From positions 1,104,357 through 1,168,356 of the forward strand of contig NZ_OZ241836.1 in the NCBI RefSeq assembly GCF_965202595.1: DNA of 64,000 bases, in the 5' to 3' direction. Origin of the DNA: Candidatus Poriferisocius sp. (lineage in GTDB: Bacteria; Actinomycetota; Acidimicrobiia; Acidimicrobiales; Bin134). The position numbers and the translations under genes are program-made. Below are positions 1-52,813 of this stretch, one piece after another. Under the pieces are notes generated by a model, which was not told the origin of the DNA, did not search any database, and saw only the letters and a program-made list of their open reading frames with translations. Position 1 is the stretch's first letter, and the number at the start of each line of letters is the position of its first letter.

Positions 1-9
1 AGGAGTCAT

Positions 10-543
10 TTACGAGGGAACTCCCAGCGAGTTCAGCAGCGTTGGCCAGAAATCGTGGGCGATCTGGCGCACGTCTGGCTCGGGGCGCGTGTCAAGTGGG
101 TAGGGCAACACACACAGTCGCAAGCCGGACCGGCCCAGGTTGCGGGCCATGATCCCGGCCAGCGGCACGAACTCCTCGGTAACGACGGCGACCGCCGTCT
201 TGCCCCTGGACGCTATCGCGACTGCGTCGTGGACGGTCCAGGAGGTGCAGCTTCCTCAATTGCCAAGGCCGACGATGGCGATGTCCACATCGGTGGCGAA
301 GTTGTCCAGCTCCACCAGAACCGCGTCCTTGAGCTTGACATCCTGGCGGGATTCTGAGCACCACGGCATCACCTCGGCACCAGCCGCGGTCAGCTTGTGG
401 GTCCACTCCTCGGTGGTCCACAAAAACGAGCGCCAGGTGAGGTCGTAGCGGATGCCCACCCGCTTACCGATCAGCGGACCGGCATCGGGGCCCCGGTCCG
501 GGTCAATAGCCTGCGGGACTGCCGTCGGATCCAGTACCAACAT
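10..543 (-). CDS. UGSC-family selenoprotein; in-frame TGA at 256-258 read as selenocysteine
   Basis: Track ORF 256..543 stops at TGA after ...DIAIVGLGN. The same frame continues GSCTSWTVHDAVAIASRGKTAVAVVTEEFVPLAG... to TAA at 10-12, giving the N-U-G-S-C motif. It is a paralog of 13710..14258, which has TGA at the same motif position. Confidence 0.8.
205..242 (-). other. candidate SECIS-like stem-loop downstream of UGA 256-258
   Basis: On the minus strand, CCTGGAC (242-236) pairs with GTCCAGG (211-205). There is an inner CGAC-GCA-GTCG hairpin. The structure begins about 14 nt after the TGA. Hand-folded only. Confidence 0.3.
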
Positions 544-1389: not shown

Positions 1390-1468
1390 GATCGGTGGTG
1401 CTCCGAGCGTAGCAACCCGACCGGTTTCACCGCCGGGGGGTAGGGCTTCATGATCGGTGATGCTCCGG
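1375..1468 (-). repeat. 62-bp junction duplication (about 1.5 copies) creating a 21-aa linker ORF at 1386..1451
   Basis: GGGGTAGGGCTTCATGATCGGTG[G/A]TGCTCCG occurs at 1375-1406 and 1437-1468. Both copies carry the ATCATGA stop/start overlap. The linker ORF reads MKPYPPAVKPVGLLRSEHHRS. Confidence 0.9.
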
Positions 1469-2752
1469 TTCTGCGCCTTCGCCGGTTTCCATGGCCGCGA
1501 ACCGCTCCACCAGAGCTTCCAGCGCTTCCGCCGAAGTCGAGGCTCCGCCCGGGGCGTTGGGAAGCCGGACCGGCCCGTGCTCCCGGCTGGGCAGCAGAAC
1601 GGTGGCATGCCCCGGGGTTGTGGTCTCGCCCCGCTGGTTCTCCCCCCAGATATCCAGATCCACTGCCGGGAGGTCGCCACCGGCCAAGTACTTGCGAGCC
1701 ACCCGACCTCGCATCCAGTGGGTATCGCCCACATAGTTGAATCCTCGGAACTGGCAGTCCAACCGCCACAACCAGGCATCGTCACCCATCCAGTCGGTGC
1801 ACAGGTGAGTAAGCCAGCATTCCCGCATTCGCCCGTAGTCGTACACCGCGGGACTACCCGCTCTCTCGGCCCACTCGGGATCCCAGTGGACCCGCTGCTG
1901 CACATCGGGGACACCGAGGGCATCGGGTCGGAAAAAGCGGGGCACCCGCCGGCGCTGCTGGTACCCCAGGCGCAGGGCTTTGACCCCGTAGAGCCCCATA
2001 CCCATGCCCGCGTGCCAGCAAACAATGTCGGTCACCCGCAGTGGCCCCTTCACCAGAGGAGCAAGCTCGTCCCCCACCTCGGTGTCCTCATACCACCGGG
2101 GTTCCGCGCCCCGGCGGTTGCCGGGTTCGGCGGCGTAGGCCTCGTCAATGCGAGCCAGTTCATCGGTGCCATAGGGTTCGATCAGGCTCTCCCGCTCATG
2201 GCGGGTGGCCTGGGCCTCGGCCCGATCGGTGCGGATCATGAGCCGGTACTGGGCTGACAGCACCGGCCCTCCGCCGGCTGCGAACACCTCGGCGGTCCAT
2301 TCGTGGATCGCTCGATTAGCGAACCGGCTCCGCTTGTCGTGAACTCCGACCAGCGCGTTGCGCCGGGTAACCCGGGTACCGGGTCGCAGGGGTTGCCACC
2401 ACTCCCGGTGGCTGGCCGAGTAGTGGGCCTGCGCTCCCCTGAGTGGATCTCCCCTGAGTAGGGCGGCGGTTTTCGGATCCAGCCGCTCCACCTCGTTCTC
2501 GCCGATCAGCGTATCCCCGCCCACCATCGGCGGCGGGGCGATGGGTCCGCCCCACACGGTCCCCAACCCGTACTCGGGGTCGCACCACAGGGGATTGTCG
2601 TCACCGTAGGCTTCGGCCACCTGCCGGAAAGCATCCTCGTTGGGTACCTGGAAACGGGGTGGTTGGGGATGGGGCGTGGCTGAGCCTATGCGGCTCCGAA
2701 GCGCCGCCACCGCTTCGTCGGTTATGCCACCAGGGTGTCGTCCATCGTTCAC
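1448..2752 (-). CDS. MaoC/FAS1-like (double hotdog) acyl dehydratase family protein
   Basis: From track ORF 1448..2893. The sequence (DDNPLWCDPEYG..., a long two-lobed dehydratase-like protein) matches what I recall for the MaoC N-terminal plus MaoC dehydratase families. Start is uncertain: GTG 2752 or ATG 2836. Confidence 0.6.
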   Translation of the reverse strand: MNDGRHPGGITDEAVAALRSRIGSATPHPQPPRFQVPNEDAFRQVAEAYGDDNPLWCDPEYGLGTVWGGPIAPPPMVGGDTLIGENEVERLDPKTAALLRGDPLRGAQAHYSASHREWWQPLRPGTRVTRRNALVGVHDKRSRFANRAIHEWTAEVFAAGGGPVLSAQYRLMIRTDRAEAQATRHERESLIEPYGTDELARIDEAYAAEPGNRRGAEPRWYEDTEVGDELAPLVKGPLRVTDIVCWHAGMGMGLYGVKALRLGYQQRRRVPRFFRPDALGVPDVQQRVHWDPEWAERAGSPAVYDYGRMRECWLTHLCTDWMGDDAWLWRLDCQFRGFNYVGDTHWMRGRVARKYLAGGDLPAVDLDIWGENQRGETTTPGHATVLLPSREHGPVRLPNAPGGASTSAEALEALVERFAAMETGEGAEPEHHRS

Positions 2753-2891
2753 GAAACGAGAGTAGCCCTGAAGAGTAGCCCGCGAACCGGTTCGCGGGGG
2801 TGAGGGCGGATTCTTCGATGGCAGTGATCTCGCCATCAAGGGGTTGGCTTCGAACCGGTTCGCAGGGGTGGAGCTGAGCCAAACTGATTCC

Positions 2892-3695
2892 ATGGGCTAT
2901 GAGACACTGATCGTGGAGCGCCGCGGCCGGGTGGGGTGGTTGATCAACAACCGGCCTGACCAGCTCAACGCCATGAACTCCTTGATGCGAGATGAGTTGG
3001 CCGAGGCCTGGCTGGCGCTCGACCGGGATCCGGAAGTGCGGGTGATTGTCCACACCGGGGAGGGGCGGGCCTTCCAAACCGGGGTGGACGTGACAGAGCT
3101 GGCCACCGACGGGCAGGGCATGGAGCGTTACCGGGAGTCGGTGGAGAACTTCGATCTTCACTTCACTTCTTGGCATCAGCAAGTGCGAAAGCCGGTGATC
3201 ACCGCAATCAACGGCATCTGCTGCGGGGGTGGATTCCACTGGGTGGCCGATGCCGACATCGCCATTGCGGCATCCGATGCCCAGTTTTTCGATCCTCACG
3301 TTTCTGTGGGACAGGTAGTGGCCCTCGAAGCCATCGCGCTGCTCAAGAAGATGCCGGCCGAGGCGGTGATGCGTATGGCCCTGATGGGGGTCCACGAGCG
3401 AATGGGGGCTCAGCGGGCCCACGAGTTGGGAATGATCAGCGAGGTGGTGGATCCGCCCGAGCGGCTGCGGGAGCGAGCCGGGGAGATCGCCGAGGCCGTT
3501 GCCCGCAACTCCCCCTCGGCCATGGCGGCCACGAAAAAAGCTCTTTGGGATGCTCTGGAGCATGGCCTCACCACCGCCTGCCGGGTTGGTGCCTCCCACA
3601 TGACGGGGATGTGGGGTCATCCCGACCAGATCGAGGGGCCGGCCGCCTTTACCGAAAAACGCGAACCCGAATGGGTGCCCCTCGACCCGATTTAG
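2892..3695 (+). CDS. enoyl-CoA hydratase/isomerase family protein
   Basis: MGYETLIVERRGRVGWLINNRPDQLNAM..., CCGGGFHWVADADIAIA, and a C-terminal FTEKREPEW typical of crotonases. The internal ATG of track ORF 2844..3695 is chosen as start. Confidence 0.85.
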   Translation: MGYETLIVERRGRVGWLINNRPDQLNAMNSLMRDELAEAWLALDRDPEVRVIVHTGEGRAFQTGVDVTELATDGQGMERYRESVENFDLHFTSWHQQVRKPVITAINGICCGGGFHWVADADIAIAASDAQFFDPHVSVGQVVALEAIALLKKMPAEAVMRMALMGVHERMGAQRAHELGMISEVVDPPERLRERAGEIAEAVARNSPSAMAATKKALWDALEHGLTTACRVGASHMTGMWGHPDQIEGPAAFTEKREPEWVPLDPI

Positions 3696-3768: not shown

Positions 3769-5580
3769 CTACCTACCGGGTCGGCGTTTCTGGACGCGGG
3801 CCCATTCGTCGCGCAGACCTACGGTGCGGTGGAACCGATCGGGGGCCTCGGGGTCGCGGGCGAAATAGCCGAGGCGCTCGAACTGGACCACCTGGCCGGG
3901 GGCGATGTCGGCCATGGCCGGCTCGAAGCGGGCCGTCTCCACGAGGCGGATGGAGTCGGGGGCCAGCGAGTCCATCGGATCGGTGCCGTCGGCACCGGGG
4001 TAAGGGTGGGTGAACAGGTGCTGGTAGAGCAAGGCCTGGCCGCGGTGGGCGTGGGCCGCGGATACCCAGTGGATGGTGGCCCGCACCCTGCGCCCATCGG
4101 GGGCTTGGCCCGATCCGGTGTCGGGGTCGTAAACACAGCGGACCTCGGTCACCCTGCCGTCTATGTCGGTTTCCACCCCGGTGCAGGTTACGAAGTAGCC
4201 CGATCTCAGGCGGACTTCCCGGCCGGGAGCCAGCCGGTAAAATTTGGGGGGCGGATCGAGCATGAAGTCGTCCCGTTCGATGTAGAGGACTCGTGAGAAC
4301 GGGACCTGCCGGGTACCCGCCGAGGGATCCTCGGGGTTGTTGGCGGCCTCCCGCATCTCCGTTTGGCCCTCGGGATAGTTTTCGATGACCAGCCGTAGCG
4401 GGTCGAGCACCGCCATCCGGCGCAGAGCCACCGCGTTCAGCTCCCGGCGGACGAAGGATTCCAGCAGCTCCACCTCCACGGTGCCGTCCACCCGGGCCAC
4501 CCCGATGTGGCGGCAGAACTGCCGGATTGCGTTTGGCGGGTAGCCCCTCCGGCGCAGACCTTGAAGGGTGGGCATGCGGGGATCGTCCCACCCGGATACA
4601 TGGCCTTTTGACACCAGCTCCGAAAGGCGACGCTTGGACAGCACGGTGTGAGTCAGGTTCAGGCGGGCGAACTCTGTTTGCCGGGGGCGATCCCCGGGCA
4701 GGTCGAGATGTTTTAGGAACCAGTCGTACAGCGGGCGGTGGGCATCGAACTCCAGGGTGCAGATCGAGTGGGTCACACCCTCCAGGGCATCGCTCTGGCC
4801 GTGGGCCCAGTCGTAAGTGGGATAGATGCACCATCGGTCGCCGGTGCGGTGATGGGTCTGGTGGCGAATGCGGTACAACACCGGGTCGCGCATGAGCATG
4901 TTCTCATGGGCCATGTCTATTCGGGCCCGCAACACCCGCTCACCGTCGGCGAACTCGCCGGCCCGCATGCGACGGAACAGGTCCAGGTTCTCATCAACCG
5001 TCCGGTTCCGCCAGGGGCTGTGGGTGCCCGGTTCGGTGAAGCTGCCTCGGGTGGCCGAGATGGTCGCCGCGTCCTGGTCGTCCACATAGGCCAGCCCGGC
5101 CCGGATCAGGTCTTCCGCCCAGTGGTAGAGCGGCTCGAAGTAATCGGAGGCGTAAAGGGTGCCCCGATCGGATTGGTAACCCAGCCAAGCCAGGTCGTTC
5201 TCAATGGCGGCGACGAAATCGGATCTCTCGGTCTCGGGGTTGGTGTCGTCCAGGCGGAGGTTGCAAGTGCCGTTGAACTCGCCGGCCAGGTCGAAGTTCA
5301 AACAGATGGACTTGGCGTGGCCGATGTGGAGATAGCCGTTGGGTTCGGGGGGGAACCGGGTCTGCACCCGACCGGCGAAAGTTCCCTCGGCGATATTCCG
5401 GTTGACCAAGGTGCGAATGAAGTCGCTGCGTTGGCTCGACTTGCCATCAACGAAGTCGCTGCGTTGGTTCGACTTGGTATCAATGAAGTCGCTGCGTTGG
5501 CTCGACTTGGCATCAACGAAGTCGCTGCGCTCGCCCGGTTCGGCATCCCCGGTGCTCCCCGCGCGGCTCATGGGCCCCAT
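3769..5580 (-). CDS. glnS: glutamine--tRNA ligase with repeat-bearing N-terminal extension
   Basis: PEPNGYLHIGHAKS (HIGH) and VLSKRRL (KMSKS-like) class I motifs, with GlnRS-like sequence throughout. ATG at 5580 (MGPMSRAG...). The rest of track ORF 3769..6348 overlaps the divergent amidohydrolase gene. Confidence 0.9.
   Translation of the reverse strand: MGPMSRAGSTGDAEPGERSDFVDAKSSQRSDFIDTKSNQRSDFVDGKSSQRSDFIRTLVNRNIAEGTFAGRVQTRFPPEPNGYLHIGHAKSICLNFDLAGEFNGTCNLRLDDTNPETERSDFVAAIENDLAWLGYQSDRGTLYASDYFEPLYHWAEDLIRAGLAYVDDQDAATISATRGSFTEPGTHSPWRNRTVDENLDLFRRMRAGEFADGERVLRARIDMAHENMLMRDPVLYRIRHQTHHRTGDRWCIYPTYDWAHGQSDALEGVTHSICTLEFDAHRPLYDWFLKHLDLPGDRPRQTEFARLNLTHTVLSKRRLSELVSKGHVSGWDDPRMPTLQGLRRRGYPPNAIRQFCRHIGVARVDGTVEVELLESFVRRELNAVALRRMAVLDPLRLVIENYPEGQTEMREAANNPEDPSAGTRQVPFSRVLYIERDDFMLDPPPKFYRLAPGREVRLRSGYFVTCTGVETDIDGRVTEVRCVYDPDTGSGQAPDGRRVRATIHWVSAAHAHRGQALLYQHLFTHPYPGADGTDPMDSLAPDSIRLVETARFEPAMADIAPGQVVQFERLGYFARDPEAPDRFHRTVGLRDEWARVQKRRPGR
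5416..5540 (-). repeat. 33-bp in-frame tandem repeat (about 3.8 copies) in the glnS 5' coding region
   Basis: AATGAAGTCGCTGCGTTGGCTCGACTTGCCATC-type units encode (K)SSQRSDF(V/I)D four times, immediately upstream of the conserved catalytic core. Confidence 0.9.
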
Positions 5581-5652
5581 CTTTGACCGATACCGGACCG
5601 GCCGGCAAGGTGTTTTATTTCTATGAGCGGCTGATTGGTGCGAAACTTGGGT

Positions 5653-6795
5653 ATGGCCTATTCGATCATCGACGTCGACACCCACATCACCGAGCCGGCC
5701 GACACCTGGACCAGTCGAGTTGCCGCCCGCCACCGTGACCGCGTGCCTCGAGTGGAGGTGATCGATGGTCGCCAGATCTGGTTGCTGGGCGATGACCGCA
5801 TCGGGGCGGTGGGCCCGACCGCTCCGGCCGGTTGGCCCAAGCCCATGCCCGACTCGCCGGCGGGCTATCACGAGGTGCATCCGGCGGCCTACGATGCCGA
5901 CGCTCGCTTGAAGCTGATGGATCGGCGGGGGGTATGGGCCGAGGTTCTGTATCCCAATGTGGGCGGGTTCGGTGCCCAACGGTTCTTGTCGATTGCCGAG
6001 GCCGATCTGAAGCAATCGTGCGTTCGGGCCTACAACGACTTCCTGGTGGAGTGGTGCAGCGCCGATTCCCGGCGGCTCATCCCGTCGATGGCCACCCCGT
6101 TCTGGGATGTGGATGGCGCGGTGGCCGAGGTGGAGCGGTGTGCCGCTATGGGCTACCGGTCGGTGAACTTCACCGGCGAGCCCCAGGTGTTCGGGCTGCC
6201 GTACCTGGGTGAGCCCCACTGGAACCCATTCTGGTCGGCGGTGTGCGATAACGACATGGTGGTGTCCTTCCACATCGGTAGCGGTGAGTTCAACTGGGAC
6301 CACACCCGGGTGGAGCGTCGAGGTTTCGCCGAGGCCTACGCCCTGCAATCGGTGGATCTTTTCACCAAGAACGGGATCCAGGTGTGCGATCTGTTGCTAT
6401 CGGGCGTGCTGCCCCGCTTCCCGAAGCTGCGGGTGGTGTCGGTGGAGTCGGGGATCGGCTGGCTACCGTTCATGCTGGAAGCGCTGGACCACCAGTTCAT
6501 TGAGGGGGGTGGTCCGAGGGAGCGGCCCGAGTTCGACAAGCTGCCCAGCGAGTACTTCGCGGAGCAGGTGTACACAACGTTCTGGTTCGAGGAGTCGGCC
6601 CCCCAGGATTTGCTGGGAAGCAGGATCCCGCTGGACAACGTGCTGTTCGAGACCGACTTCCCCCACCCCACCTGTCTGTACGACAACGTGCAGGAGAAGA
6701 TTGCGGCCAGCATCGGCCACCTGCCCCCCGAAGCCCGCCATCAGCTTCTCTGGGGCAACGCCGAGAAGCTCTACCGGGTACAAGCACCGGCCTGA
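5653..6795 (+). CDS. amidohydrolase-2 family metal-dependent hydrolase
   Basis: MAYSIIDVDTHITEP... N-terminus and ...FETDFPHPT near the C-terminus are typical of the ACMSD-like amidohydrolase_2 fold. Confidence 0.8.
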   Translation: MAYSIIDVDTHITEPADTWTSRVAARHRDRVPRVEVIDGRQIWLLGDDRIGAVGPTAPAGWPKPMPDSPAGYHEVHPAAYDADARLKLMDRRGVWAEVLYPNVGGFGAQRFLSIAEADLKQSCVRAYNDFLVEWCSADSRRLIPSMATPFWDVDGAVAEVERCAAMGYRSVNFTGEPQVFGLPYLGEPHWNPFWSAVCDNDMVVSFHIGSGEFNWDHTRVERRGFAEAYALQSVDLFTKNGIQVCDLLLSGVLPRFPKLRVVSVESGIGWLPFMLEALDHQFIEGGGPRERPEFDKLPSEYFAEQVYTTFWFEESAPQDLLGSRIPLDNVLFETDFPHPTCLYDNVQEKIAASIGHLPPEARHQLLWGNAEKLYRVQAPA

Positions 6796-6985
6796 TAGGT
6801 GTGGCCATGAGCGATCAATGGGACATAATTTCCAGCCACTACAGCAACCAAAAGTTGCTGCCTGATAGGTGATGACCATGAACGATCAATGGGACCGGCA
6901 AGCTGGTGTGGCCATGAGCGATCAATGGGACCGGCAAGCTGGTGTGACCATGAGCGATCAATGGGACCGGCAAGCCGATGTGGTG
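6791..6985 (+). repeat. compound junction repeat: a 70/71-bp duplication plus 36-bp x3 in-frame copies of the downstream start region
   Basis: CCTGATAGGTG..CCATGA.CGATCAATGGGAC occurs at 6791 and 6861. ATGAGCGATCAATGGGACCGGCAAGC units have ATGs at 6878, 6914 and 6950. The ATG at 6807 opens a 21-aa ORF that stops at 6870-6872. Confidence 0.85.
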
Positions 6986-8435: not shown

Positions 8436-8615
8436 TCAGTTCAACACCAGGCCCTCGAGAGCACCCTCATATCAGTTCAACACCAGGCCCTCGAGAGCAC
8501 CCTCATATCAGTTCAACACCAGGCCCTCGAGAGCACCCTCATATCAGTTCAACACCAGGCCCTCGAGAGCACCCTCATATCAGCTCAGCACCAGGCCCTC
8601 GAGAGCACCCTCGTC
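8436..8615 (-). repeat. 36-bp x5 tandem copies of the BVMO 3' terminus, each including the stop codon
   Basis: TCAGTTCAACACCAGGCCCTCGAGAGCACCCTCATA occurs four times (8436, 8472, 8508, 8544), followed by the real end TCAGCTCAGCACC... at 8580. Each copy reads ...GALEGLVL(N/S)-stop on the minus strand. Confidence 0.95.
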
Positions 8616-10865: not shown

Positions 10866-10956
10866 CCGAACTTGTTGGATCGCGGACCTCATCGGATTAC
10901 CGAACTTGTTGGATCGCGGACCTCATCGGATTACCGAACTTGTTGGATCGCGGACC
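10866..10956. repeat. 34-bp tandem repeat (about 2.7 copies) starting 2 nt after the cupin stop codon
   Basis: CCGAACTTGTTGGATCGCGGACCTCATCGGATTA occurs at 10866, 10900 and 10934 (partial). It lies between convergent genes. Confidence 0.9.
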
Positions 10957-11472: not shown

Positions 11473-12349
11473 GGCTGGTCACGGTTCCGGGGGAGGATCC
11501 CGGTGCGGGGGCTTGGAACACCCAACGGTTGCCGGTGCGGGACAGGTGGCCGCAACCGGGGCCGGCGAAGTGGGTGCCGAGGATGAGCACGCCGGAGTCG
11601 GCGTAGCGTTCCCGGAACTCCACCCGGGTGGCGGAGGCTCGTGACGGATCGTCGTCGGCGGTCATGATCCAATCCGGGGCGGCGAACTGCACCGGATGGT
11701 GGACCAGGTCACCGGTGATTACCGCCTCCTGGCCCCGGGATGAGATTTGGACGCTGACATGGCCAGGGGTATGGCCCGGCGTGGGCATGAGGCGGATCTC
11801 GCCGGTGACCTGGTGGTGACTGTCCACGAGGTCGGCCAAGCCGGCCTCCATTACCGGCTGCACAGCGTCGCCAAAGGTTACCGCTGCCCCCTCCGCCCCG
11901 GAGTCCCAGTAGTCGTACTCGGTGCGGTTGAACAGGTAGCGGGCGTTGGGGAAGGCCGGCACCCACTTGGCATCCACGAGGATGGTATTCCAGCCCACAT
12001 GATCAAAGTGCAGGTGGGTGCAGAGCACCACATCGATATCGGGGGGTTCATACCCGGCGGCGGCCAACTCGTCGAGGAATCCGGTGCCGAGGTGGCTCAT
12101 CTGGGGAACCATCTCGATGGGCCGGTTGCCGATGCAGGTGTCCACCATCACGGTTTGGCCCTCGGACTCCAGTACCAGGGCGTGAATGGACAGCGGCAGG
12201 TTGCCGGACTCCTCCATGAAGTGGGGTTTCAACCAGTCGGCGTTGGCCTCGAACACTGCCATGTCGGGGTTCGTGTACATGCCGGTGGCGGGGACGCTTT
12301 GCAGGGTCTCCCGTATCAGGGTGACCTTCACGTCACCGATTGGCATCAT
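11465..12349 (-). CDS. MBL-fold metallo-hydrolase (lactonase-like)
   Basis: Contains the HLHFDHVGWN zinc-binding motif and a downstream TPGHTPGH. Confidence 0.8.
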   Translation of the reverse strand: MMPIGDVKVTLIRETLQSVPATGMYTNPDMAVFEANADWLKPHFMEESGNLPLSIHALVLESEGQTVMVDTCIGNRPIEMVPQMSHLGTGFLDELAAAGYEPPDIDVVLCTHLHFDHVGWNTILVDAKWVPAFPNARYLFNRTEYDYWDSGAEGAAVTFGDAVQPVMEAGLADLVDSHHQVTGEIRLMPTPGHTPGHVSVQISSRGQEAVITGDLVHHPVQFAAPDWIMTADDDPSRASATRVEFRERYADSGVLILGTHFAGPGCGHLSRTGNRWVFQAPAPGSSPGTVTSHG

Positions 12350-12422
12350 GTCCGGGTGACCTTCACATCACCGATTGGCATCATGTCCGGGTGACCTTCA
12401 CATCATCAATTGGCATCATGTC
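12321..12422 (-). repeat. 35-bp x3 duplication of the MBL start codon region, creating two 12-aa ATGA-coupled uORFs
   Basis: ATGATGCCAAT(C/T)G(G/A)TGA(T/C)GTGAAGGTCACCC units have ATGs at 12419, 12384 and 12349. The upstream copies read MMPI(D/G)DVKVTRT-TGA, with the TGA overlapping the next ATG. Confidence 0.9.
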
Positions 12423-12525: not shown

Positions 12526-13599
12526 ATGGGTGAGGATGAGCCGGTGATCGCCATGCCTGCTGTTCAAACCATCGAGGAATGGGTGGAGCTGGCTCATACC
12601 GAGGGGCTGACAGACGGGTTGCCGGTGTATCCCCCCACCCGAGCCGCGGTGGATGCCCTGGTGATGGCCTCGGGCCGGGATCCCGGCCTGTTGCTGGGAG
12701 CCATCCCCCCGAGGGGCGGGGCGGCCACTGTAGAAGTATTGGCCGCCAACGCGGCCATGGCCGGATGCCGGCCCGAGCATTTCGAGGTGGTGCTGTCCGC
12801 CGTCGAGGCCATGCTGGAGGATCGTTTCAACCTGCGAGGGGTGGTCACCACTACCCACCCGTGCTGGCCGTTGATCATCGTGTCGGGACCGGTGGTCGAG
12901 CAGTTGCAAATGGCGCATGCCGAGTCGGTGTTCAGCGGTGGTGGAGCTCACGCCGGTGCGGCTATCGGCCGGGCGGTCAAGCTCATCTTGTGGAACGTGG
13001 GGGGAGCCACTCCCGGCGAGCCGGTCAAGGAGGTTTTGGGGCATCCCGGCCGTTATGCCTTCTGTGTAGCCGAGTCACCGGCCGGCCCGTGGCCTCCCTT
13101 GCACCAGGCCCGGGGGATAAAAGCCGGCAGCGGGGTAACGGTGTTCGCTTGCGAATCCCCCACCAGCGTGGCCCTGTGGGGAACGGACGACACCCCGAGC
13201 AATCGCCTGGCCCAGTTGGCCGATGCCATGGCCCTCAAGGGGGGCAACAACACCCACACCATGGGCGAGATCCTGGTGATCTTCACCCCCAACGAGGCCC
13301 GTCACCTGTTTGAGCAAGGTTATGACCGGGAGGCGGTGCAACTGGATCTGTGGCAGAGGGCCCGGCGGCGAATCGGGGATCTGCTGGCCCCGGGACTCCC
13401 TCCCTACAACTGGTGGCCGGCCTGGGTGGATGCCGGCGACCCCGACACGCTGGTTCCGGTGACCGAGCGACCCGAGGACATCCACGTGGTGGTCACCGGG
13501 GCCGAGTCCATACCCTGGATGGCGGTGTGCGCCGGCTGGGGAAACCTGGGAGGCCATGCCGTCAGCCGGGCGCTCGACGAGGGCACCGGGCAGGATTGA
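12526..13599 (+). CDS. conserved hypothetical protein (357 aa) immediately upstream of a UGSC selenoprotein gene
   Basis: A clean 357-aa ORF with high-GC third positions. I recognise no family. The ATG at 12526 is preceded by a 15-bp x2 ATG-rich repeat at 12501-12530. Confidence 0.5.
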   Translation: MGEDEPVIAMPAVQTIEEWVELAHTEGLTDGLPVYPPTRAAVDALVMASGRDPGLLLGAIPPRGGAATVEVLAANAAMAGCRPEHFEVVLSAVEAMLEDRFNLRGVVTTTHPCWPLIIVSGPVVEQLQMAHAESVFSGGGAHAGAAIGRAVKLILWNVGGATPGEPVKEVLGHPGRYAFCVAESPAGPWPPLHQARGIKAGSGVTVFACESPTSVALWGTDDTPSNRLAQLADAMALKGGNNTHTMGEILVIFTPNEARHLFEQGYDREAVQLDLWQRARRRIGDLLAPGLPPYNWWPAWVDAGDPDTLVPVTERPEDIHVVVTGAESIPWMAVCAGWGNLGGHAVSRALDEGTGQD

Positions 13600-13725
13600 A
13601 AGCAGTTGGTTGGGTGATCAACAAGGTCGGGGGGGGGGGGGCAAGTGATCGGGGCCAGAGAAGTGCAGGCGTTCTGGCGTGAATTGAAAGTGTTCGGCAA
13701 GATCGGGGGATGCAAGTGATCGGGG
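13595..13725 (+). repeat. diverged duplication of the stop/start junction between the hypothetical gene and the UGSC gene, containing a G13 tract
   Basis: ATTGAAAG...CAAGTGATCGGGG occurs at about 13595-13654 and about 13683-13725. In the upstream copy, the GGGGGATG of the real start is replaced by a G13 run at 13629-13641. Confidence 0.75.
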
Positions 13726-14258
13726 AGTTGGTGGATCCTCGAGGAGTGGTGATGATCGGCGGGGCCGGGTTGGCCGCCCGGCGGGGCCATACCCGGGGAC
13801 CGCTGATCATCGGGTTCCTGGTCAACGAGTTCAATCCCTCGTCAGGGCCCGACTTCACCCGTTATACCGAGGTGCTGGAGCAAAAGTTCCGGCATCGTCT
13901 GGACGTGACCGCGGTGATCCGCCGGCACAAGCCGCTGCTCAGTCGACCGGCGGGTGATGAGATGCTGGCCTCGTTCCGGGCCTGCGCGGGGGTGGTCAAC
14001 GGTCTGGCCAAATGAGGCTCATGCACGTCGGGCAGTGTGCTCGATGCCGTGAACCTGGAGAAGTTGGGCATCCCCACCGTAACTTTGGTCACCGAGCCGT
14101 TCACCGTGGCTGCTGGCACCGTGGCCCGATCCCTGGGCATGCCCGATGTTCCCCGGGTGGCGGTACCCCATGATTATCTCACCGAGAGCGACGGCACCAT
14201 TGCCAGAAAACTCGAGCCCCTGGTGGATCGAATCCTGGATCAACTGCTGATCCGCTGA
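13710..14258 (+). CDS. UGSC-family selenoprotein; in-frame TGA at 14013-14015 read as selenocysteine
   Basis: Track ORF 13710..14015 ends ...VVNGLAK-TGA. The same frame continues GSCTSGSVLDAVNLEKLGIPTVTLVTEPF..., which is track ORF 14037..14258. This gives K-U-G-S-C, with architecture parallel to 10..543. Confidence 0.8.
14016..14048 (+). other. candidate SECIS-like imperfect hairpin immediately 3' of UGA 14013-14015
   Basis: In GGCTCATGCACGTCGGGCAGTGTGCTCGATGCC, the core GCACGT pairs with GTGTGC (with G-U pairs) around a 6-nt G-rich loop, and the outer GGC pairs with GCC. Hand-folded only. Confidence 0.3.
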
Positions 14259-14277
14259 CCGGATTGCCCGGCGGTGC

Positions 14278-14357
14278 TGCTGTCTGGTGGTTTCGCTGTC
14301 CGGCGGTTTCGCTGTCCGGCGGTTTTGCTGTCCGGCGGTTTTGCTGTCCGGCTGGTT
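14278..14357. repeat. 16-bp x5 tandem repeat filling the convergent intergenic gap
   Basis: GCTGTC(C/T)GG(C/T)GGTTT(C/T) units lie between the UGSC stop (14258) and the dioxygenase stop (14364). Confidence 0.9.
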
Positions 14358-16405: not shown

Positions 16406-17853
16406 GCGATTGCGTTCCCCTCCAAGCAGTGGCCCCCCGCCGGGCCGCGAAATTACGGGCAAAGCGGTGGCGTATCGCGAGTTGCGTTCCCCTCCAAGCA
16501 GTGGCCTCCCGCCGGGGGGTGGTTCTGTTCACGGCCGCCGTGGTTATGGCGATCATCGGTGCCTGCGGGTCTGGTTCCCCCGGCTCCCCCGGCTCCCCTG
16601 CCGCGGTCACACCTCCGGTAGTCTCCGAGCCCGGATTCGCGGTCACGCCGTACCCTGATCCCGGTTCGGTTGTCCATGCCGACCCGGTTTACCGGCTGGA
16701 CGGCAACCGGATAACAGAAGGCTCCGGGTTGGGTACCGGGTTCATTAACCAGGTCACTACCAAGGACTTGAGCCTGGATGATGTCCCCACCTGGATAACC
16801 GGGGCCAGTACCCCGGCAGGGGATGTCTGGGTGGTAGCCCTGGCTGACGGAACGACAGTGGGCTACCGCGTACCGGTTGGTGGGCAGCCGGTGGAGATCG
16901 ACATTGTCGGCGACCGGCTGAACCCCGGCCAACCGCCGATGCTGGCCATCCAGGGAAACTCGGTGCGCTTGGCCACCACCCCGGCCAACGCACTGTCCAG
17001 CGGTGTCCCGGTGTATCTCAACCAGGACCGCACCGCCTATGTGGACAACCTCCAGCGGTTCACCGTCCTGGAGGCCGACGGCACGCTGTGGCGCCCCGAT
17101 CTGGAAGTGCTGCCCGACACCCGGATGGTTCAGGTCAGCCCGGAGAAAGTGCTGTTACTGGCCGGACCCACCAACCGCTATCCCCATTCCGCCCTGGGTG
17201 ACAACCTGGAGGCCACTTCGGTGGTGGCGGTCACGGTTGGGGTGAACGAGCTCGAAACCATCTACCGATCCGGGGATGATGTCATCGAGACCATCGCCCC
17301 CCTGCTGGCCGATGTGGACGGGGACGGGATCGATGATGTGGTGCTCACCGTCAGCAACGATGCCGGAATCAGGATCGTGGTTGTTTCGAGCACCGGCGGA
17401 GGCGTGGTGGCAACCAGCGATCCCACCGACCGCCTGCTGGGCTGGCGGCAGCTCATCGCGGTGGGACCGCTGGGACCCGACGGGGGGACCGAGATCGCCG
17501 AGATCCTCCATCCCAGCACCGATGGCTCGGTAAGGTTCCTCAAGCGGAACGGACCCGGCCTGGATGTGGTCGCCCAGAAAGTTGGCTATCGATCCCACGA
17601 ATTCGGAACCCGCAACCTCGAGCAAGCCCTGGTTGTAGACGCCGATCGGGACGGCCATCCGGAAGTGGTCGTTCCCACCCTGGACCGGCAATCCATGGCC
17701 GGGGTGCGTCACGCCCCCGATGGGGCGGCGGAGATGTGGGTTCGCCCTCTGGGGGGGACGCTGGCCACCAACATCGCCGCTCTCACCCGTCCCGACGGTA
17801 CCTTATCCCTCGCAGCCGGAACCCGGGAAGGTTCGCTGCGTATATGGCAATGA
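16402..17853 (+). CDS. secreted lipoprotein with FG-GAP/VCBS-like repeats
   Basis: Lipobox-like ...VVMAIIGAC followed by GSGSPGSPGSP. Contains DVDGDGIDDVVL and DADRDGHPEVVV Ca-binding-like repeats. The N-terminus contains a 72-bp in-frame duplication. Confidence 0.6.
   Translation: MSDCVPLQAVAPRRAAKLRAKRWRIASCVPLQAVASRRGVVLFTAAVVMAIIGACGSGSPGSPGSPAAVTPPVVSEPGFAVTPYPDPGSVVHADPVYRLDGNRITEGSGLGTGFINQVTTKDLSLDDVPTWITGASTPAGDVWVVALADGTTVGYRVPVGGQPVEIDIVGDRLNPGQPPMLAIQGNSVRLATTPANALSSGVPVYLNQDRTAYVDNLQRFTVLEADGTLWRPDLEVLPDTRMVQVSPEKVLLLAGPTNRYPHSALGDNLEATSVVAVTVGVNELETIYRSGDDVIETIAPLLADVDGDGIDDVVLTVSNDAGIRIVVVSSTGGGVVATSDPTDRLLGWRQLIAVGPLGPDGGTEIAEILHPSTDGSVRFLKRNGPGLDVVAQKVGYRSHEFGTRNLEQALVVDADRDGHPEVVVPTLDRQSMAGVRHAPDGAAEMWVRPLGGTLATNIAALTRPDGTLSLAAGTREGSLRIWQ
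16407..16516 (+). repeat. 72-bp in-frame duplication (about 1.5 copies) of the lipoprotein 5' end
   Basis: TTGCGTTCCCCTCCAAGCAGTGGCC(C/T)CCCGCCGGG occurs at 16410 and 16482. It encodes CVPLQAVA(P/S)RR twice. Confidence 0.9.
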
Positions 17854-17981
17854 GCACCTGGCTATCCGGTAGTGCGTATATGGCAATGAGCACCTGGGTA
17901 TCCGGTAGTGCGTATATGGCAGTAAGCACCTGGGTATCCGGTAGTGCGTATATGGCAGTAAGCACCTGGCTATCGGGTAGT
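17838..17981 (+). repeat. 36-bp x4 tandem copies of the lipoprotein 3' terminus, filling the whole intergenic gap to the ATPase
   Basis: GCGTATATGGCA(A/G)T(G/A)AGCACCTGG(C/G)TATC(C/G)GGTAGT occurs at 17838, 17874, 17910 and 17946. Each copy keeps RIWQ-stop, as CAA TGA or CAG TAA. Confidence 0.95.
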
Positions 17982-21453: not shown

Positions 21454-21522
21454 AGGCTGCCCTTGGCCGGGGTAGCCGCTAGCTGGGTGAGGCTGCCTTT
21501 GGTTGGGTCAGGCGCTAGCCGA
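21451..21522. repeat. 36-bp x2 diverged duplication of a convergent stop/stop junction
   Basis: TGAAGGCTGCCCTTGGCCGGGGTAGCCGCTAGC versus GTGAGGCTGCCTTTGGTTGGGTCAGGCGCTAGC. The copies carry the LLM TGA and the peroxiredoxin TAG respectively. Confidence 0.7.
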
Positions 21523-21985
21523 GTTTTGCGACATCGTTCAGTATGTCGGCGGCGTGCTGGGCCAGGTCTTGGCTAGCCAGGTCGTAAGCCCTGGCCACTT
21601 TGCCGTCGGGGGCGATGAGGTAGCTGATGCGCCGGGGCAGGCCGTACTCGTAATACTCCTCGCCCTCGACCCGCTCGGCGTGATAGGCCCGCCCCACCGT
21701 TCGGTCGGAGTCGGAGATCAGCTTGAACGGGAAGCCCTCCCGGCCGGCGAATGCCTTCTGCTCGTCCACGGTGTCGAACGAGGCTCCCACTACCACGACG
21801 TTGGCGGCATCGAACTCCGGGGCTCGGTCACGGAACCCCTGTCCCTGGATGGTTCAACCGGGGGTGGATGCCTTCGGGTACCACCATAACGCCACCCACT
21901 TGCCCCGCAGATCCGAAAGCGACAGATCCTGACCGTCCTGGTCCGGCGCGGTGAACTCCGGCGCCATCGTTCCTACTTGTAACAT
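21515..21985 (-). CDS. Bcp-type peroxiredoxin with selenocysteine (TGA at 21854-21856) in place of the peroxidatic Cys
   Basis: My translation is MLQVGTMAPEFTAPDQDGQDLSLSDLRGKWVALWWYPKASTPG-TGA-TIQGQGFRDRAPEFDAANVVVVGASFDTVDEQKAF..., joined in frame to track ORF 21515..21796. The canonical motif is PK..TPGCT. Confidence 0.85.
21819..21839 (-). other. candidate SECIS hairpin 14 nt downstream of the peroxiredoxin UGA
   Basis: On the minus strand, GGGGTTC-CGTGACC-GAGCCCC forms a 7-bp stem (one G-U pair) with a 7-nt loop containing GU. Confidence 0.4.
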
Positions 21986-22071
21986 GGCTATGTATTCTAC
22001 CTTGACAGCCAGCTAAGCGCTTGCTTGTAACATGGCTATGTATTCTACCTTGACAGCCAGCTAAGCGCTTG
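21976..22071 (-). repeat. perfect 48-bp x2 duplication spanning the ALDH stop and the peroxiredoxin start
   Basis: CTTGTAACATGGCTATGTATTCTACCTTGACAGCCAGCTAAGCGCTTG is identical at 21976-22023 and 22024-22071. Each copy holds both the CTA stop and the CAT start. Confidence 0.95.
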
Positions 22072-23535
22072 CATCTCGCTGTAAGCGTGAAGGCCGTAGA
22101 CACCGCGGTCGCGACCGATGCCGCTCATCTTGAAGCCGCCGAAGGGGGCGTGGGTGTGGGGGGCCAGCGAGTTGAGCCCCACGTTGCCCGATTCGATGCG
22201 CCGGCCGATCTCGAAGGCCCGGGCAGTGTCGCCGGCAAACACGTAACTGAACAAGCCGTAGTCGCTGCTGTTGGCCAGCTCCACGGCGTGGTCGTCACCG
22301 TCGTGGGCCAGCACGACCACCACCGGCCCGAATATTTCCTCCCGCACCACTCGCATGCCGGGGGTGCAGTCCACCAGCAGCGTGGGGGCCACGAAGCAAC
22401 CGGGCCGGTCGGGGCGCTCACCACCGGCCAGCACCGTGGCTCCTTCGGCTCGACCGCCGGCGATGTACCCCTCCACCCGGTCGCGGTGAGCTTCGGTGAT
22501 GACCGGGCCCACCACCGTCCCCCGATCCCGGGCATCACCCACCTTCAGCATCCCGGCCACCGCGGTCAGCTTGTCAACCAGCTCGTCGTGGCGCGAGCGG
22601 TGGACGATCACCCGGGTGGGCGCGGTGCAGATCTGGCCGCTGTGGAATCCCCACACGGTAGCGATGGCCCCGATCGCGGCATCCACGTCGCAATCCTCGG
22701 TGAGAACGCAGGCCCCCTTGCCCCCCAGTTCCATGAGCAGCCGCTTCATGGTGGCCGCCCCGGCCTCCATGATCTTGACCCCTACCGCGGACGAACCGGT
22801 GAAGCTCACCATGTCCACGTCACGGGACTCCACCAGAGCGGCCCCGGTGCCGGCTCCCGGCCCGGTCACGATGTTTATCACCCCTGGCGGGAAGCCGGCC
22901 TCCTCGATAATTCCCACCGCTTTGATCATGGCCAGAGGATCCTGGGGCGCGGGCTTGATGACCACGGTGTTGCCCATGGCCAGAGCGGGGGCGACCTTGC
23001 CGGCCACGTTGACCAGCGGGAAGTTGTACGAGGTTATGCAGGCCACCACTCCTACCGGCTGGCGGATCACGTGGGCCCCGGCCAATCCGCCCGGTCCCAG
23101 CGGGTTGGCCTCCACCGGGTAGGGGGCCAGGGTCTCGTCCAGGTTCACCGGGGTTTGGTACTGGCGGAACCGCTCACCGCACGACGGCAACTGCATGCTC
23201 TCGGTCACGTTTACGGTGGCACCGGTCTCCCCCTGCACCAGACCGGCCAGGCTCCCGATCCGTTCATCCAGCAGGTCGGCGGCCCGGCCCAGCAGGGCGC
23301 ACCGGTCGGCCATCGGCATCGCCCGCCAACCCGGCAGGGCTGCTCGGGCCGCCGCGGCCGCGTCGGCCACCTGCGAGGCAGACGCTTCGGGAGCGTGACC
23401 GATCACTCCGGTGGTGTTGGGGTCCACGATCGGGTAGGTGCCCGCATCCGGGGTCACCCACTCACCCCCGATGAGCAGGCGGTACTCCTCACCGATGTCA
23501 ACCGGTGCCGGCTCGGCTGATTCCATGGGTGTCAC
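22045..23535 (-). CDS. NAD(P)+-dependent aldehyde dehydrogenase
   Basis: ELGGKG, catalytic GQICTAPTR and FTGSSAVG motifs, in a 496-aa protein. Confidence 0.9.
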   Translation of the reverse strand: MTPMESAEPAPVDIGEEYRLLIGGEWVTPDAGTYPIVDPNTTGVIGHAPEASASQVADAAAAARAALPGWRAMPMADRCALLGRAADLLDERIGSLAGLVQGETGATVNVTESMQLPSCGERFRQYQTPVNLDETLAPYPVEANPLGPGGLAGAHVIRQPVGVVACITSYNFPLVNVAGKVAPALAMGNTVVIKPAPQDPLAMIKAVGIIEEAGFPPGVINIVTGPGAGTGAALVESRDVDMVSFTGSSAVGVKIMEAGAATMKRLLMELGGKGACVLTEDCDVDAAIGAIATVWGFHSGQICTAPTRVIVHRSRHDELVDKLTAVAGMLKVGDARDRGTVVGPVITEAHRDRVEGYIAGGRAEGATVLAGGERPDRPGCFVAPTLLVDCTPGMRVVREEIFGPVVVVLAHDGDDHAVELANSSDYGLFSYVFAGDTARAFEIGRRIESGNVGLNSLAPHTHAPFGGFKMSGIGRDRGVYGLHAYSEMQALSWLSR

Positions 23536-23685: not shown

Positions 23686-24918
23686 GTCCAGCTCGTACAG
23701 ATGGATGGCGTTGCCCCGGAGCAGCTTGTAGATCTCCTCGTCATTGAGCCCGGCCTCGGTGACGATCCTGGTTGCCACCTCCTTGGTGTGGGGGAAAGTG
23801 GAGTCGGCGTGGGGGTAGTCCACCTCGAAGGTGATTTGATCCATGCCGATCAGGTCCCGGTTGCGCAGCCCCACCGCATCGTCGAACATGCAGCCCCACA
23901 CGTGGCCGGCGATGTAGGAGGATGGTGGGTTGGGCAGGTTCACCCCGAATTCGCCGTTGTCGTCATTGATCCGCTCCTCCCACAACTTGTCCATGCGCTC
24001 GATCACGTAGGGCATCCATCCCACCTGGCCCTCGCTGTAAGCCACCCGCAGGCGGGGGTAACGCTCGAACACTCCCGACAGGATGTAGTCGCACATCGAT
24101 CCCATGGCGTTGCTGAAGGTGATGGTGGAGCTGACTGCGAACGGCGCGTCCGGCGAAGTGGTGGGCATCTTGGATGATGACCCGATATGCATGTTCACCA
24201 CCGTCCCGGTTTCCTCGCAGGCGGCGAAGAACGGCTCCCAGAACCGGCTCGGATGGTGGATGGAGGGCAGTCCCAAGTGGAATGGGTTTTCCGAGAAAGC
24301 CACCGAGAAGCTGCCCTTGGCGGCGCACCGGCGGATCTCCTCGGCAGCCAGGTGGGCATCCCACAGCGGGATGATGGTCAGGGGGATCAGCCGACCCCTG
24401 CCGTCACCGGCACACCACTCGTCGATCATCCAATCGTTGTAGGCCTTGACGCACAGGAGGGCCAGCTCCTTGTCCTCACGCTCGTGGAATGTCTGCCCGC
24501 AGAACCGGGGTAGCACGTTGGGGAAGCAGATGGATGCATCCACATGGTTGGCGTCCATGTCCGCCAGGCGTTCCTTCTGCTTCCAGCACCCGGGCAGGAT
24601 CTCGTCGAAGGTCACCGGCGTGTTGGTGAGGGGTTCGAACCCGATGGCGGCCGAGAGTTTGGGGAACGGGTACACCAGATCGTCGTAGAGCCACCAGTCG
24701 CCCCACGTTCCGTCGGGGGCTCCCTTCTCGTAGCTGAACACACCACCCTCGAAGTGGAACTTGGCCTTGTCCCGCTCCACTCGGGGGCAACGGTCGTGGT
24801 ACTTGCGGGGAAGGCGCTCGGTCCACAGGTCGGGTGGTTCCACCACATGGTCATCCACGGAGATGATGCGAGGGATGTCGTGGTCGTCCACGGAGATGAT
24901 GCGAGGGATGTCTGCCAT
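23665..24918 (-). CDS. amidohydrolase-2 family metal-dependent hydrolase
   Basis: IISVDDHVVEPPDLW..., ...FEVDYPHADSTFP, in a 417-aa protein. The N-terminus carries a 33-bp in-frame duplication. Confidence 0.8.
   Translation of the reverse strand: MADIPRIISVDDHDIPRIISVDDHVVEPPDLWTERLPRKYHDRCPRVERDKAKFHFEGGVFSYEKGAPDGTWGDWWLYDDLVYPFPKLSAAIGFEPLTNTPVTFDEILPGCWKQKERLADMDANHVDASICFPNVLPRFCGQTFHEREDKELALLCVKAYNDWMIDEWCAGDGRGRLIPLTIIPLWDAHLAAEEIRRCAAKGSFSVAFSENPFHLGLPSIHHPSRFWEPFFAACEETGTVVNMHIGSSSKMPTTSPDAPFAVSSTITFSNAMGSMCDYILSGVFERYPRLRVAYSEGQVGWMPYVIERMDKLWEERINDDNGEFGVNLPNPPSSYIAGHVWGCMFDDAVGLRNRDLIGMDQITFEVDYPHADSTFPHTKEVATRIVTEAGLNDEEIYKLLRGNAIHLYELDRFGIAA
24850..24915 (-). repeat. 33-bp x2 in-frame duplication in the amidohydrolase 5' coding region
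   Basis: It encodes DIPRIISVDDH twice, immediately after the ATG at 24918. Confidence 0.9.
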
Positions 24919-42919: not shown

Positions 42920-42921
42920 CG
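42856..42921 (-). repeat. 33-bp x2 in-frame duplication of the gatB start ([10 protein letters not shown] twice)
   Basis: CCGGTTCGTTTTGAGTGTTGTTGCTCGTCATCG occurs at 42856 and 42889. Confidence 0.95.
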
Positions 42922-45304: not shown

Positions 45305-45450
45305 GTGTGATGCAGGTTCCGAAGTGCATGTTTTACTGGATGAGTGTGATGCAGGTTCCGAAGTGCATGTTTTACTGGATGAGTGTGATGCAGGTTCCGA
45401 AGTGCATGTTTTACTCGGGTCGGGTGATGAGCTTGATGCAGGTTCCGAAG
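45294..45450. repeat. 39-bp x3 copies plus the diverged original, spanning the convergent SCP2 and kinase stop codons
   Basis: TTACTGGATGAGTGTGATGCAGGTTCCGAAGTGCATGTT occurs at 45294, 45333 and 45372. The real kinase end TTACTCGGGTCGGGTGATGAGCTTGATGCAGGTTCCGAAGTCC is at 45411. Confidence 0.95.
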
Positions 45451-47378: not shown

Positions 47379-47434
47379 TTCGGGCACGCTTTGAGGGTAC
47401 CGATCTCCTTCATTTCGGGCACGCTTTGAGGGTA
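47365..47434 (-). repeat. perfect 35-bp x2 duplication of the kinase start, creating a 12-aa ATGA-coupled uORF (47375..47413)
   Basis: CCGATCTCCTTCATTTCGGGCACGCTTTGAGGGTA occurs twice. The uORF MKEIGTLKACPK ends in a TGA that overlaps the ATG at 47378. Confidence 0.95.

Positions 47435-49933: not shown

Positions 49934-52813
<2,880 letters not shown>

Follow-up and report, generated by a model that had tools for sequence, protein, structure and literature searches.

The stretch of DNA considered here (the window, 64,000 nucleotides (nt) with a G+C content of 64.8%) comes from Candidatus Poriferisocius sp. (contig NZ_OZ241836.1, positions 1,104,357 to 1,168,356 of the forward strand) and carries at its very beginning a gene, here named UGSC-1, that is interrupted by a TGA codon very probably read as selenocysteine (Sec). 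Positions are those of the whole window throughout, and the nucleotide numbers given for RNA hairpins count from the U of the UGA as 1. The gene is made up of the following features:

10 to 543, minus strand: coding sequence of UGSC-1, 177 sense codons with Sec at codon 96 and a TAA stop at 10-12, delimited by the reading frame and the PF24696 match
256 to 258, minus strand: in-frame TGA, the predicted Sec codon and first residue of the U-G-S-C motif, aligned with Cys and kept across genomes

UGSC-1 is a single minus-strand frame that runs from the ATG at 543-541 to the TAA at 12-10, with the TGA at 258-256 as its sole interruption: 95 codons ending in ...IAIVGLGN precede the TGA, 81 codons starting with GSCTSWTVHD... 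follow it, and the predicted read-through peptide across the Sec residue is IAIVGLGN-U-GSCTSWTVHDAVAIASR. A preliminary description of this DNA had joined the two parts of the split open reading frame (ORF) into a protein of 177 residues with a U-G-S-C motif, and its coordinates and codon counts are exact. It had also named UGSC as a curated family of (seleno)proteins, and such a family indeed exists (NF041046, PF24696; PMC2398784). The “UGSC-containing protein” was first noted in 2007 (PMC1976440), and UGSC has since been treated as a published selenoprotein family of unknown function (PMC1976440, PMC2398784, PMC13188914) that a review of 2026 still lists as uncharacterised (PMC13188914), its Sec form being abundant in aquatic metagenomes (PMC2398784, PMC1976440, PMC13188914). 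The family has thus been known since 2007-2008, and UGSC-1 adds a member to it. The Sargasso Sea paper makes no mention of UGSC, and selenium is absent from the titles and abstracts of the two coral microbiome papers that name “Poriferisocius”.

When the U is replaced by C, the read-through translation matches Pfam PF24696 with 105.2 bits (cut-off 25), residues 3-173 corresponding to positions 2-170 of the 172-position profile, so that the gathering cut-off is passed with near full-length coverage and the TGA is spanned. The 81 residues past the TGA match the NCBIfam model NF041046 (UGSC_fam) even when taken alone (E = 1.7e-12), and the family-model search that the preliminary description had proposed therefore gave a positive answer for the whole protein as well as for its second half. 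Among 5.8 billion proteins, 507 homologs of UGSC-1 were found, the best being about 52% identical; that a closer full-length homolog was not found is expected if close relatives are likewise truncated at the TGA. In the alignment, the TGA column holds Cys in each of the 25 full-length homologs, the segment GLGN-[TGA]-GSCTSW of UGSC-1 being aligned with GL[GA]N-C-GSCT.W, and homology extends to both sides of this column, with strongly conserved motifs past it (T122, F125 and LPYPL). A lack of downstream homology to Cys-form UGSC proteins, which had been named beforehand as grounds for abandoning the Sec reading, is thus not what is seen. Like the published family (Zhang & Gladyshev; PF24696; NF041046), UGSC-1 combines a U/C-G-S-C motif that has Sec or Cys in first place with a length of about 175-190 residues and a full-length PF24696 match.

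The degenerate pattern GLGN-TGA-GSCTxWT, which occurs once in the window (compared with 0.00 occurrences in 100 shuffles), was used to scan 185,579 species-representative genomes, and 86 loci were found with a TGA at the same codon. In these loci, the frame past the TGA stays open for 79-101 homologous codons unless the contig ends. Most of them belong to the Acidimicrobiia/Acidimicrobiales, including sponge-associated “Ca. Poriferisocius”, and others come from Myxococcota, Spirochaetales, deltaproteobacterial metagenome-assembled genomes and further groups. About 33 orthologs from Acidimicrobiales share the architecture of 177 codons at 82-92% identity (the best one, OZ220474.1, at 92%). Across 32 genomes of this clade, the variable sites at codon positions 1, 2 and 3 number 23, 13 and 51 downstream of the TGA (codons +26 to +81, past the region of the putative recoding signal) and 31, 22 and 77 upstream of it, and synonymous and non-synonymous codon differences stand at 6479:2660 (a ratio of 2.4) downstream versus 9265:3641 (2.5) upstream. 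The codon-position bias and the upstream-like synonymous ratio indicate that the half of the gene past the TGA evolves as translated sequence; the UGA and the frame behind it are thus conserved in orthologs and under purifying selection, as expected of a selenoprotein gene. The preliminary description had predicted that standard annotation would truncate such a gene, and this has happened: in locus L001 a public gene caller ended UGSC-1 at the TGA and left the second half uncalled, and the exact truncated product of 95 residues is recorded in at least two assemblies, both on a metagenome contig in ENA and on contigs of more than 1 Mb.

UGSC-1 is not the only gene of the window with a TGA in place of an active-site Cys. 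A systematic scan for TGA codons flanked by open frames with high G+C at third codon positions revealed a second UGSC-family gene, UGSC-2, and a peroxiredoxin gene (Prx) shows the same feature:

13710 to 14258, plus strand: UGSC-2, second UGSC-family selenoprotein gene, 182 codons, with the TGA at 14013-14015 (...NGLAK-U-GSCTSGS...), supported by PF24696
14026 to 14046, plus strand: canonical selenocysteine insertion sequence (SECIS) hairpin of UGSC-2, with a 9-bp stem (nt 14-22/26-34) and a GUG loop that places G23/U24, 19 nt past the UGA
21515 to 21985, minus strand: selenoprotein gene for a peroxiredoxin of BCP/PrxQ type, with the TGA at 21854-21856, supported by an AhpC-TSA match
21819 to 21839, minus strand: canonical SECIS hairpin of Prx, GGGGUUC-CGUGACC-GAGCCCC, with a 7-bp stem and a loop that starts 21 nt past the UGA (-10.5 kcal/mol)

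According to the published consensus, a bacterial SECIS has an apical loop of 3-9 nt on an upper stem of 4-16 bp, a G in the first two loop positions (typically G[G/U]), a distance of 16-37 nt between UGA and loop, and a minimum free energy of -7.5 kcal/mol or lower (PMC13188914). The hairpins of UGSC-2 and Prx fit this consensus fully, the former satisfying all four of its constraints (PMC13188914). UGSC-2 matches PF24696 across its TGA with 106.1 bits (residues 7-179). In Prx the TGA occupies the position of the peroxidatic Cys (WWYPKASTPG-U-TIQG), and the read-through protein covers positions 1-122 of 124 in the AhpC-TSA model with 117 bits, compared with 56 bits for the C-terminal fragment alone; peroxiredoxins of the TxxU type are a listed selenoprotein family (PMC2398784). 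Standard annotation would present Prx merely as a C-terminal fragment of 112 residues. A run of about 12 G lies just upstream of UGSC-2 (13631-13643).

Considered together, these data make it very probable that UGSC-1 is one intact selenoprotein gene of the UGSC family whose UGA at 258-256 is decoded as Sec, as the preliminary description had proposed; judged from sequence, this is the best explanation overall. Sec-tRNA(Sec) would then be brought to the UGA by SelB, itself recruited by an mRNA structure within the coding sequence. The three active-site TGAs within 64 kb (UGSC-1, UGSC-2 and Prx) are strong indirect evidence that the organism decodes Sec. Some observations nevertheless weigh against this reading. 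Neither selA, selB nor selD is present among the long ORFs of the window, essentially all of which were annotated with Pfam, or in the homologous loci examined; ARAGORN found no tRNA in the window, and no tRNA-Sec occurs in any homologous locus examined. Moreover, UGSC-1 matches NF041046 with only 68.3 bits, over profile positions 51-146, and so does not reach the equivalog cut-off of 125 bits. Since UGSC-2 also stays below this cut-off (85.3 bits), both window proteins are divergent subfamily members that depart in this respect from the published family, and UGSC-1 is, by its sequence, a UGSC family member as defined by Pfam, related to the narrower NCBIfam equivalog and placed outside it.

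The absence of the Sec machinery genes from the window, together with the fact that standard gene callers stop at the TGA, would agree with a true stop codon, in which case UGSC-1 would be a truncated gene or pseudogene, or two small ORFs, and the 81 downstream codons would remain untranslated. This is very improbable, as 86 genomes preserve the downstream frame without extra stops or frameshifts, its substitutions are biased towards third positions with a synonymous to non-synonymous ratio matching that of the upstream half, the UGSC family model requires both halves, and a stop at this place would split the catalytic motif in two. More improbable still is a sequencing or assembly error in a Cys codon: TGA differs by one base from TGC and TGT, and one of the contigs carrying it is labelled with 3x coverage, but the same TGA is found in independent assemblies and in 86 species, complete chromosomes included, it is accompanied by RNA elements specific to the Sec form that have no counterpart in Cys-form genes (see below), and two further active-site TGAs lie in the same window. 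Finally, the UGA could be read through without Sec, either because UGA is reassigned or because an unusual tRNA inserts Cys in a SECIS- and SelB-dependent manner; recoding that depends on a SECIS and uses non-canonical tRNAs has been mentioned in the literature (PMC13582414). A general reassignment of UGA throughout the genome was rejected, since TGA is the normal stop of 21 of the 36 Pfam-supported ORFs in the window, and all three internal TGAs fall on redox-active Cys positions of known selenoprotein families, so that read-through without Sec is about as improbable as a true stop.

Two RNA hairpins follow the UGA of UGSC-1 within its coding sequence:

203 to 244, minus strand: H1, a long hairpin at nt 15-56, obtained by folding, with the lower stem CUCCUGGAC/GUCCAGGGG and the apical loop GCA (or AGUC)
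184 to 199, minus strand: H2, the hairpin GACGGC-GGUC-GCCGUC at nt 60-75, with its loop at 190-193, obtained as an RNAalifold consensus and the best candidate for the SelB-binding part of the SECIS

H1 is separated from the UGA by 11 unpaired nucleotides. In the window it consists of a 9-bp lower stem and a 4-bp apical stem closed by the 3-nt loop GCA, and with -20.2 kcal/mol (z = -0.8) it is the weakest of its clade, close relatives reaching -26 to -34 kcal/mol. In a comparison set of 81 unique Sec-form sequences, nt 4-59 fold as one hairpin in about 73, closed at its base by nt 10-16 and 55-58, and the mean z is -1.9. The registers and sequences of this hairpin vary between lineages, for which reason RNAalifold over the 81 sequences does not recover H1 and folding sequence by sequence is needed. 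Within the clade, 97.7% of the alignment cells pair, compared with 31-61% when the partner columns are slid, and covariation comprises one compensatory pair (CG to UA via UG) plus several wobble changes.

H2 begins 57 nt past the UGA and 3 nt past H1, and has a 6-bp stem with a GGUC tetraloop (-9.6 kcal/mol). It is the only consensus helix that RNAalifold finds over the 81 sequences; all six pairs are kept in 77 of them, the common variants being limited to A-to-G and C-to-U changes that yield G.U pairs, and the loop fits the G[G/U] motif in 77/81 as well. H2 is thus nearly invariant across phyla, synonymous sites included: third-position entropy at four-fold degenerate codons is about 1.0-1.9 bits throughout the gene and drops to 0-0.19 bits only at codons +19 to +23 (K-T-A-V-A), which are those of H2. 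This conservation is not an artefact of selection, because the pattern used for the scan stopped 34 nt short of H2, and Cys-form proteins are variable at the same K-T-A-V-A residues. The hairpin occurs once in the window. It is absent from all five Cys-form genes whose DNA was examined, in which this place folds with -0.5 to -5.2 kcal/mol and has no GGUC loop, and nt 4-59 of these five genes form several small hairpins in place of a single long H1; the combination of H2 with one long H1 is therefore specific to Sec forms. H2 is missing from four very divergent Sec-form genes, two of which (L024 and L047) have instead a proximal hairpin, GACCGUG-CGUGA-CACGGUC, at nt 21-39 past the UGA, which implies that the UGSC family uses at least two types of SECIS. 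The CGUGA loop of this proximal hairpin resembles the CGUGACC loop of the Prx SECIS in the window.

Both H1 and H2 lie within the bacterial SECIS consensus as far as stem size, loop size and free energy are concerned, and they differ in their loops and distances. The loop of H1 in the window is GCA, with G first and then neither G nor U, and a G is found in the first two loop positions in 55 of the 81 Sec-form sequences. The distance from UGA to loop is 30 nt for H1, inside the published range of 16-37 nt, and 62 nt for H2, outside it; when a looped-out H1 is left out of the count, the UGA and the stem of H2 are about 14 linker nucleotides apart. In E. coli fdhF, SelB binds a 17-nt stem-loop (nt 15-31) located 11 nt past the UGA, with a bulged U17 and the loop bases G23/U24 (PMC8659212). 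Compared with this type of SECIS, H2 is likewise a short GC-rich hairpin whose loop matches G[G/U], and H1 starts 11-12 nt past the UGA, as does the upper stem of fdhF. The UGSC-1 region differs from fdhF and from the bacterial consensus in that an invariant GGUC hairpin has its loop 62 nt away, with a hairpin of about 42 nt in between, and from fdhF in that H2 lacks the bulged U. We take the tetraloop of fdhF to be GGUC, the same as in H2; the 17-mer assumed here, when folded, reproduces the published numbering. The UGSC-1 elements do not match a known SECIS in Rfam, which yielded neither a SECIS nor another relevant family (whole window at gathering thresholds; positions 1-600 at E <= 10).

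On this basis, we favour a two-part element in which H2 would be the SelB-binding hairpin and H1 a spacer or positioning hairpin, since H2 has the features of a hairpin that is recognised in a sequence-specific manner. In the clade, the recoding signal would then consist of 11 unpaired nucleotides, the H1 hairpin of about 42 nt (variable in sequence and fixed in position), 3 nt, and the 16-nt H2. By joining its two ends, a folded H1 would place H2 beside the mRNA entrance of the ribosome and within about 14 linker nucleotides of the UGA, the corresponding distance in E. coli fdhF being 11 nt. Several points weigh against this assignment: the loop of H2 lies well beyond the published spacing; H2 shows no covariation, which follows from its invariance, and that of H1 is thin; H1 alone satisfies the published consensus in the window, its loop being 30 nt from the UGA with a G in first place; and the folding z-scores of the regions past the UGA, computed on single sequences, are not significant in such GC-rich sequence, for which reason the comparative data were relied on. 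The fold of the region past the TGA suggested in the preliminary description thus did reveal hairpins, and it was not significant by single-sequence scores.

The converse arrangement, in which H1 would be the functional, canonical SECIS (starting 11 nt past the UGA, with its loop 30-32 nt away) and H2 an accessory that stabilises H1, makes the ribosome pause or serves some other Sec-linked role, is possible, though on balance we doubt it. Most sequences start H1 at nt 14-16, where the minimal E. coli hairpin begins, the loop spacing of 28-32 nt is within the 16-37 nt range, the loop of most clade members is AGUU, which contains G-U, one compensatory pair exists, and third-position variability in the clade is lowered over codons +1 to +25 (11 of 25 variable, versus 51 of 56 later). 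By contrast, H1 differs in sequence and register between lineages, which is why RNAalifold misses it, and G occupies its first two loop positions in only 55/81 sequences. Two substitutions in the window (GUGG to AUAG) weaken the upper stem of H1 by breaking its pairs while H2 is perfect, a single case that leans towards H2; and the invariance at the level of sequence that a protein-binding site is expected to show belongs to H2. A literature search on SECIS, SelB and GGUC found no papers.

The gene is accompanied by neighbours on both sides, and UGSC-2 by a relative of one of them:

1 to 9, minus strand: first three codons (ATG ACT CCT) of a partner gene that continues past the edge of the window and corresponds to gene 10535-11650 of L001
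580 to 1389, minus strand: gene for an enoyl-CoA hydratase/isomerase (crotonase) directly upstream of UGSC-1 (PF00378, 150 bits)
1448 to 2893, minus strand: gene for a 481-residue protein, weakly similar to hotdog/dehydratase domains (FAS1_DH_region/MaoC-N, E = 0.0018, below threshold)
12526 to 13599, plus strand: open frame (bounded from stop to stop) for a paralog of the partner, immediately upstream of UGSC-2, identified by BLASTP

The preliminary description had taken UGSC-1 for the last cistron of its operon. This is not the case, because the partner gene starts at the ATG at 9-7, which abuts the stop codon of UGSC-1, and encodes a protein of about 340 residues in a frame of 371 codons. 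Homologs of the partner lie downstream of UGSC in 81 of the 86 Sec-form loci, most of the others being cut by the ends of the locus, and they are also found in all five Cys-form loci, with 50-55% identity. As the alignment with these homologs begins near residue 33 of the partner frame, the true start may lie some 25-35 codons downstream of the abutting ATG. The non-conserved N-terminal stretch of about 35 residues (L001 10535-10650, just outside the window) contains an internal duplication, PRPNDPAEVPDD ... PRPNDLAEVPDD, which is a further case of a duplication at the 5' end of a gene (compare the tandem arrays below). The partner family comprises over 2,000 proteins, each of them labelled “hypothetical”, and has no sequence match in Pfam, NCBIfam or the PDB; an AlphaFold model of the partner (pLDDT 82) gave no significant Foldseek match in the PDB (best E = 0.06, TM 0.24). 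The paralog beside UGSC-2 is 34% identical to the UGSC-1 partner over 312 residues (BLASTP, E = 2e-35) and likewise matches neither Pfam nor NCBIfam. Since UGSC-2 thus has a partner paralog of its own, the module is present twice in the window, with the order of the two genes reversed between the copies. UGSC and its partner appear to constitute a two-gene module that exists in Sec and Cys forms across phyla, and UGSC would work together with the adjacent protein of about 340 residues, possibly acting with it or on it.

On the other side of UGSC-1, the preliminary description had placed a MaoC-type dehydratase and a crotonase. The crotonase is confirmed, its adjacency to UGSC-1 being limited to the Acidimicrobiales clade, while “MaoC-type dehydratase” was discarded as a firm label for the 481-residue protein, whose sole match is the sub-threshold one and which has no Pfam or NCBIfam match at E <= 0.001. 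The latter gene lies next to UGSC in only two other genomes (L050 and L067). The operon argument from which a link to acyl-CoA metabolism had been drawn is therefore not upheld. The link itself is plausible in a loose sense, given that the genes found near Cys-form modules in other, unrelated lineages encode crotonase, acyl-CoA dehydrogenases, a family III CoA-transferase, an AMP-binding ligase, SDRs, TctABC and GntR regulators.

For the protein itself, structure was approached through an AlphaFold model (pLDDT 94.5) of a Cys-form homolog, P0010, which is 53% identical to UGSC-1. The model consists of five beta-alpha units, (beta-alpha)x5, and the top Foldseek matches in the PDB are the flavodoxin-like proteins MdaB, NQO1, azoreductase and WrbA (TM about 0.5, E about 4e-4). 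No thioredoxin fold is found among these top matches and the thioredoxin topology is not seen; searches of PDB sequences with profiles of the UGSC and partner families gave nothing meaningful. UGSC is accordingly predicted to be flavodoxin-like, and the thioredoxin-like fold suggested earlier for the family (PMC2398784) is not supported by the model. In the model, the U/C-G-S-C motif lies where strand 3 ends and in the first turn of the helix that follows. The end of a strand at the N-terminus of a helix is the usual setting for a nucleophile of low pKa with a resolving Cys three residues further on. The selenol/thiol pair of U-G-S-C would cycle through a selenenylsulfide, and our best guess, based on this model, is that it may act as a selenol/thiol redox couple with or on the partner protein. 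UGSC resembles in this respect the redox selenoproteins of the TxxU Prx and UxxC/CxxU types, in which Sec likewise takes the place of the reactive Cys in a C-x-x-C-type motif located where a strand passes into a helix and for which Cys-form homologs are abundant, and differs from them in the predicted absence of a thioredoxin fold. Against these proposals stands the fact that both fold and redox mechanism depend on the model of a Cys homolog of 53% identity, with a Foldseek TM of only about 0.5.

The signal and the module can be joined in a broader, tentative proposal, which we regard as a genuine possibility while leaning slightly against it when taken as a whole. According to it, the UGSC-1 clade (more than 80 species of Acidimicrobiia, Myxococcota, Spirochaetota and others) would use a distinct two-part SECIS, in which an invariant GGUC hairpin about 57 nt past the UGA would be the SelB site and would be delivered by a variable spacer hairpin, and UGSC and its partner of about 340 residues would together be a two-component redox enzyme, so far undescribed, that acts in the catabolism of acyl-CoA or carboxylates. 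If the distal GGUC hairpin is indeed the SelB site, a bacterial SECIS could act over a much greater distance than current models and search tools assume, as long as an intervening hairpin shortens the path, and such a two-part SECIS would break the 16-37 nt spacing rule on which SECIS search tools depend. Three features may be new, namely the H1 plus H2 architecture (an invariant, distal GGUC hairpin together with a spacer hairpin), the obligatory partner gene, and a fold other than that of thioredoxin: none of them was found in the accessible UGSC literature, though they could have been described elsewhere before. The conserved partner, the flavodoxin-like fold and the recurrent neighbours from acyl-CoA and carboxylate metabolism offer concrete starting points on the function of UGSC. 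For annotation, it is important to stress that standard gene calling truncates no fewer than three genes of the window (UGSC-1, UGSC-2 and Prx), and that the same truncation occurs in dozens of genomes of Acidimicrobiales and “Ca. Poriferisocius”.

Apart from these genes, the window contains at least 13 short tandem arrays with periods of 33-50 bp and 2-5 copies that are 91-100% identical, each made of a different unit and all situated at the starts or ends of genes:

5419-5529, 6868-6982, 8436-8612, 10866-10956, 12319-12422, 17837-17981 and 21976-22072: tandem arrays
24848-24912, 42856-42929, 45294-45415, 47364-47435, 47921-48050 and 55900-56015: tandem arrays, continued
1380-1455 and 14268-14357: also tandem arrays

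Several of them duplicate a start codon together with promoter-like sequence, for instance at the start of Prx and at the junction of the hotdog-like and enoyl-CoA hydratase (ECH) genes. Similar arrays occur in the sister genome L050, including one at this very hotdog/ECH junction, which makes an assembly artefact improbable for those of the window; L067 has none. The array at 5419-5529 (33 nt x 3.4) lies within the N-terminal extension of the frame for glutaminyl-tRNA synthetase (GlnRS; 3769-6348, minus strand), where it encodes 11-residue repeats, SDFxDxKSxQR; the gene caller used on L001 splits the GlnRS gene and calls an ORF on the opposite strand over the catalytic domain. The ORF for an NAD-dependent DNA ligase (49934-52813, plus strand) has 959 residues, which is much longer than usual, and the roughly 170 residues that separate its HHH_5 match (ending at residue 617) from its HHH_2 match (starting at residue 790) may be an insertion. 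Finally, an AbiEi/AbiEii pair (type IV toxin-antitoxin/abortive infection; 60670-62366, plus strand) lies in an island of low G+C (48-57% versus 65%) and is flanked by two large RCC1-repeat genes (58001-60082 and 62447-64000, both on the minus strand) with periodic repeats of 111 nt.

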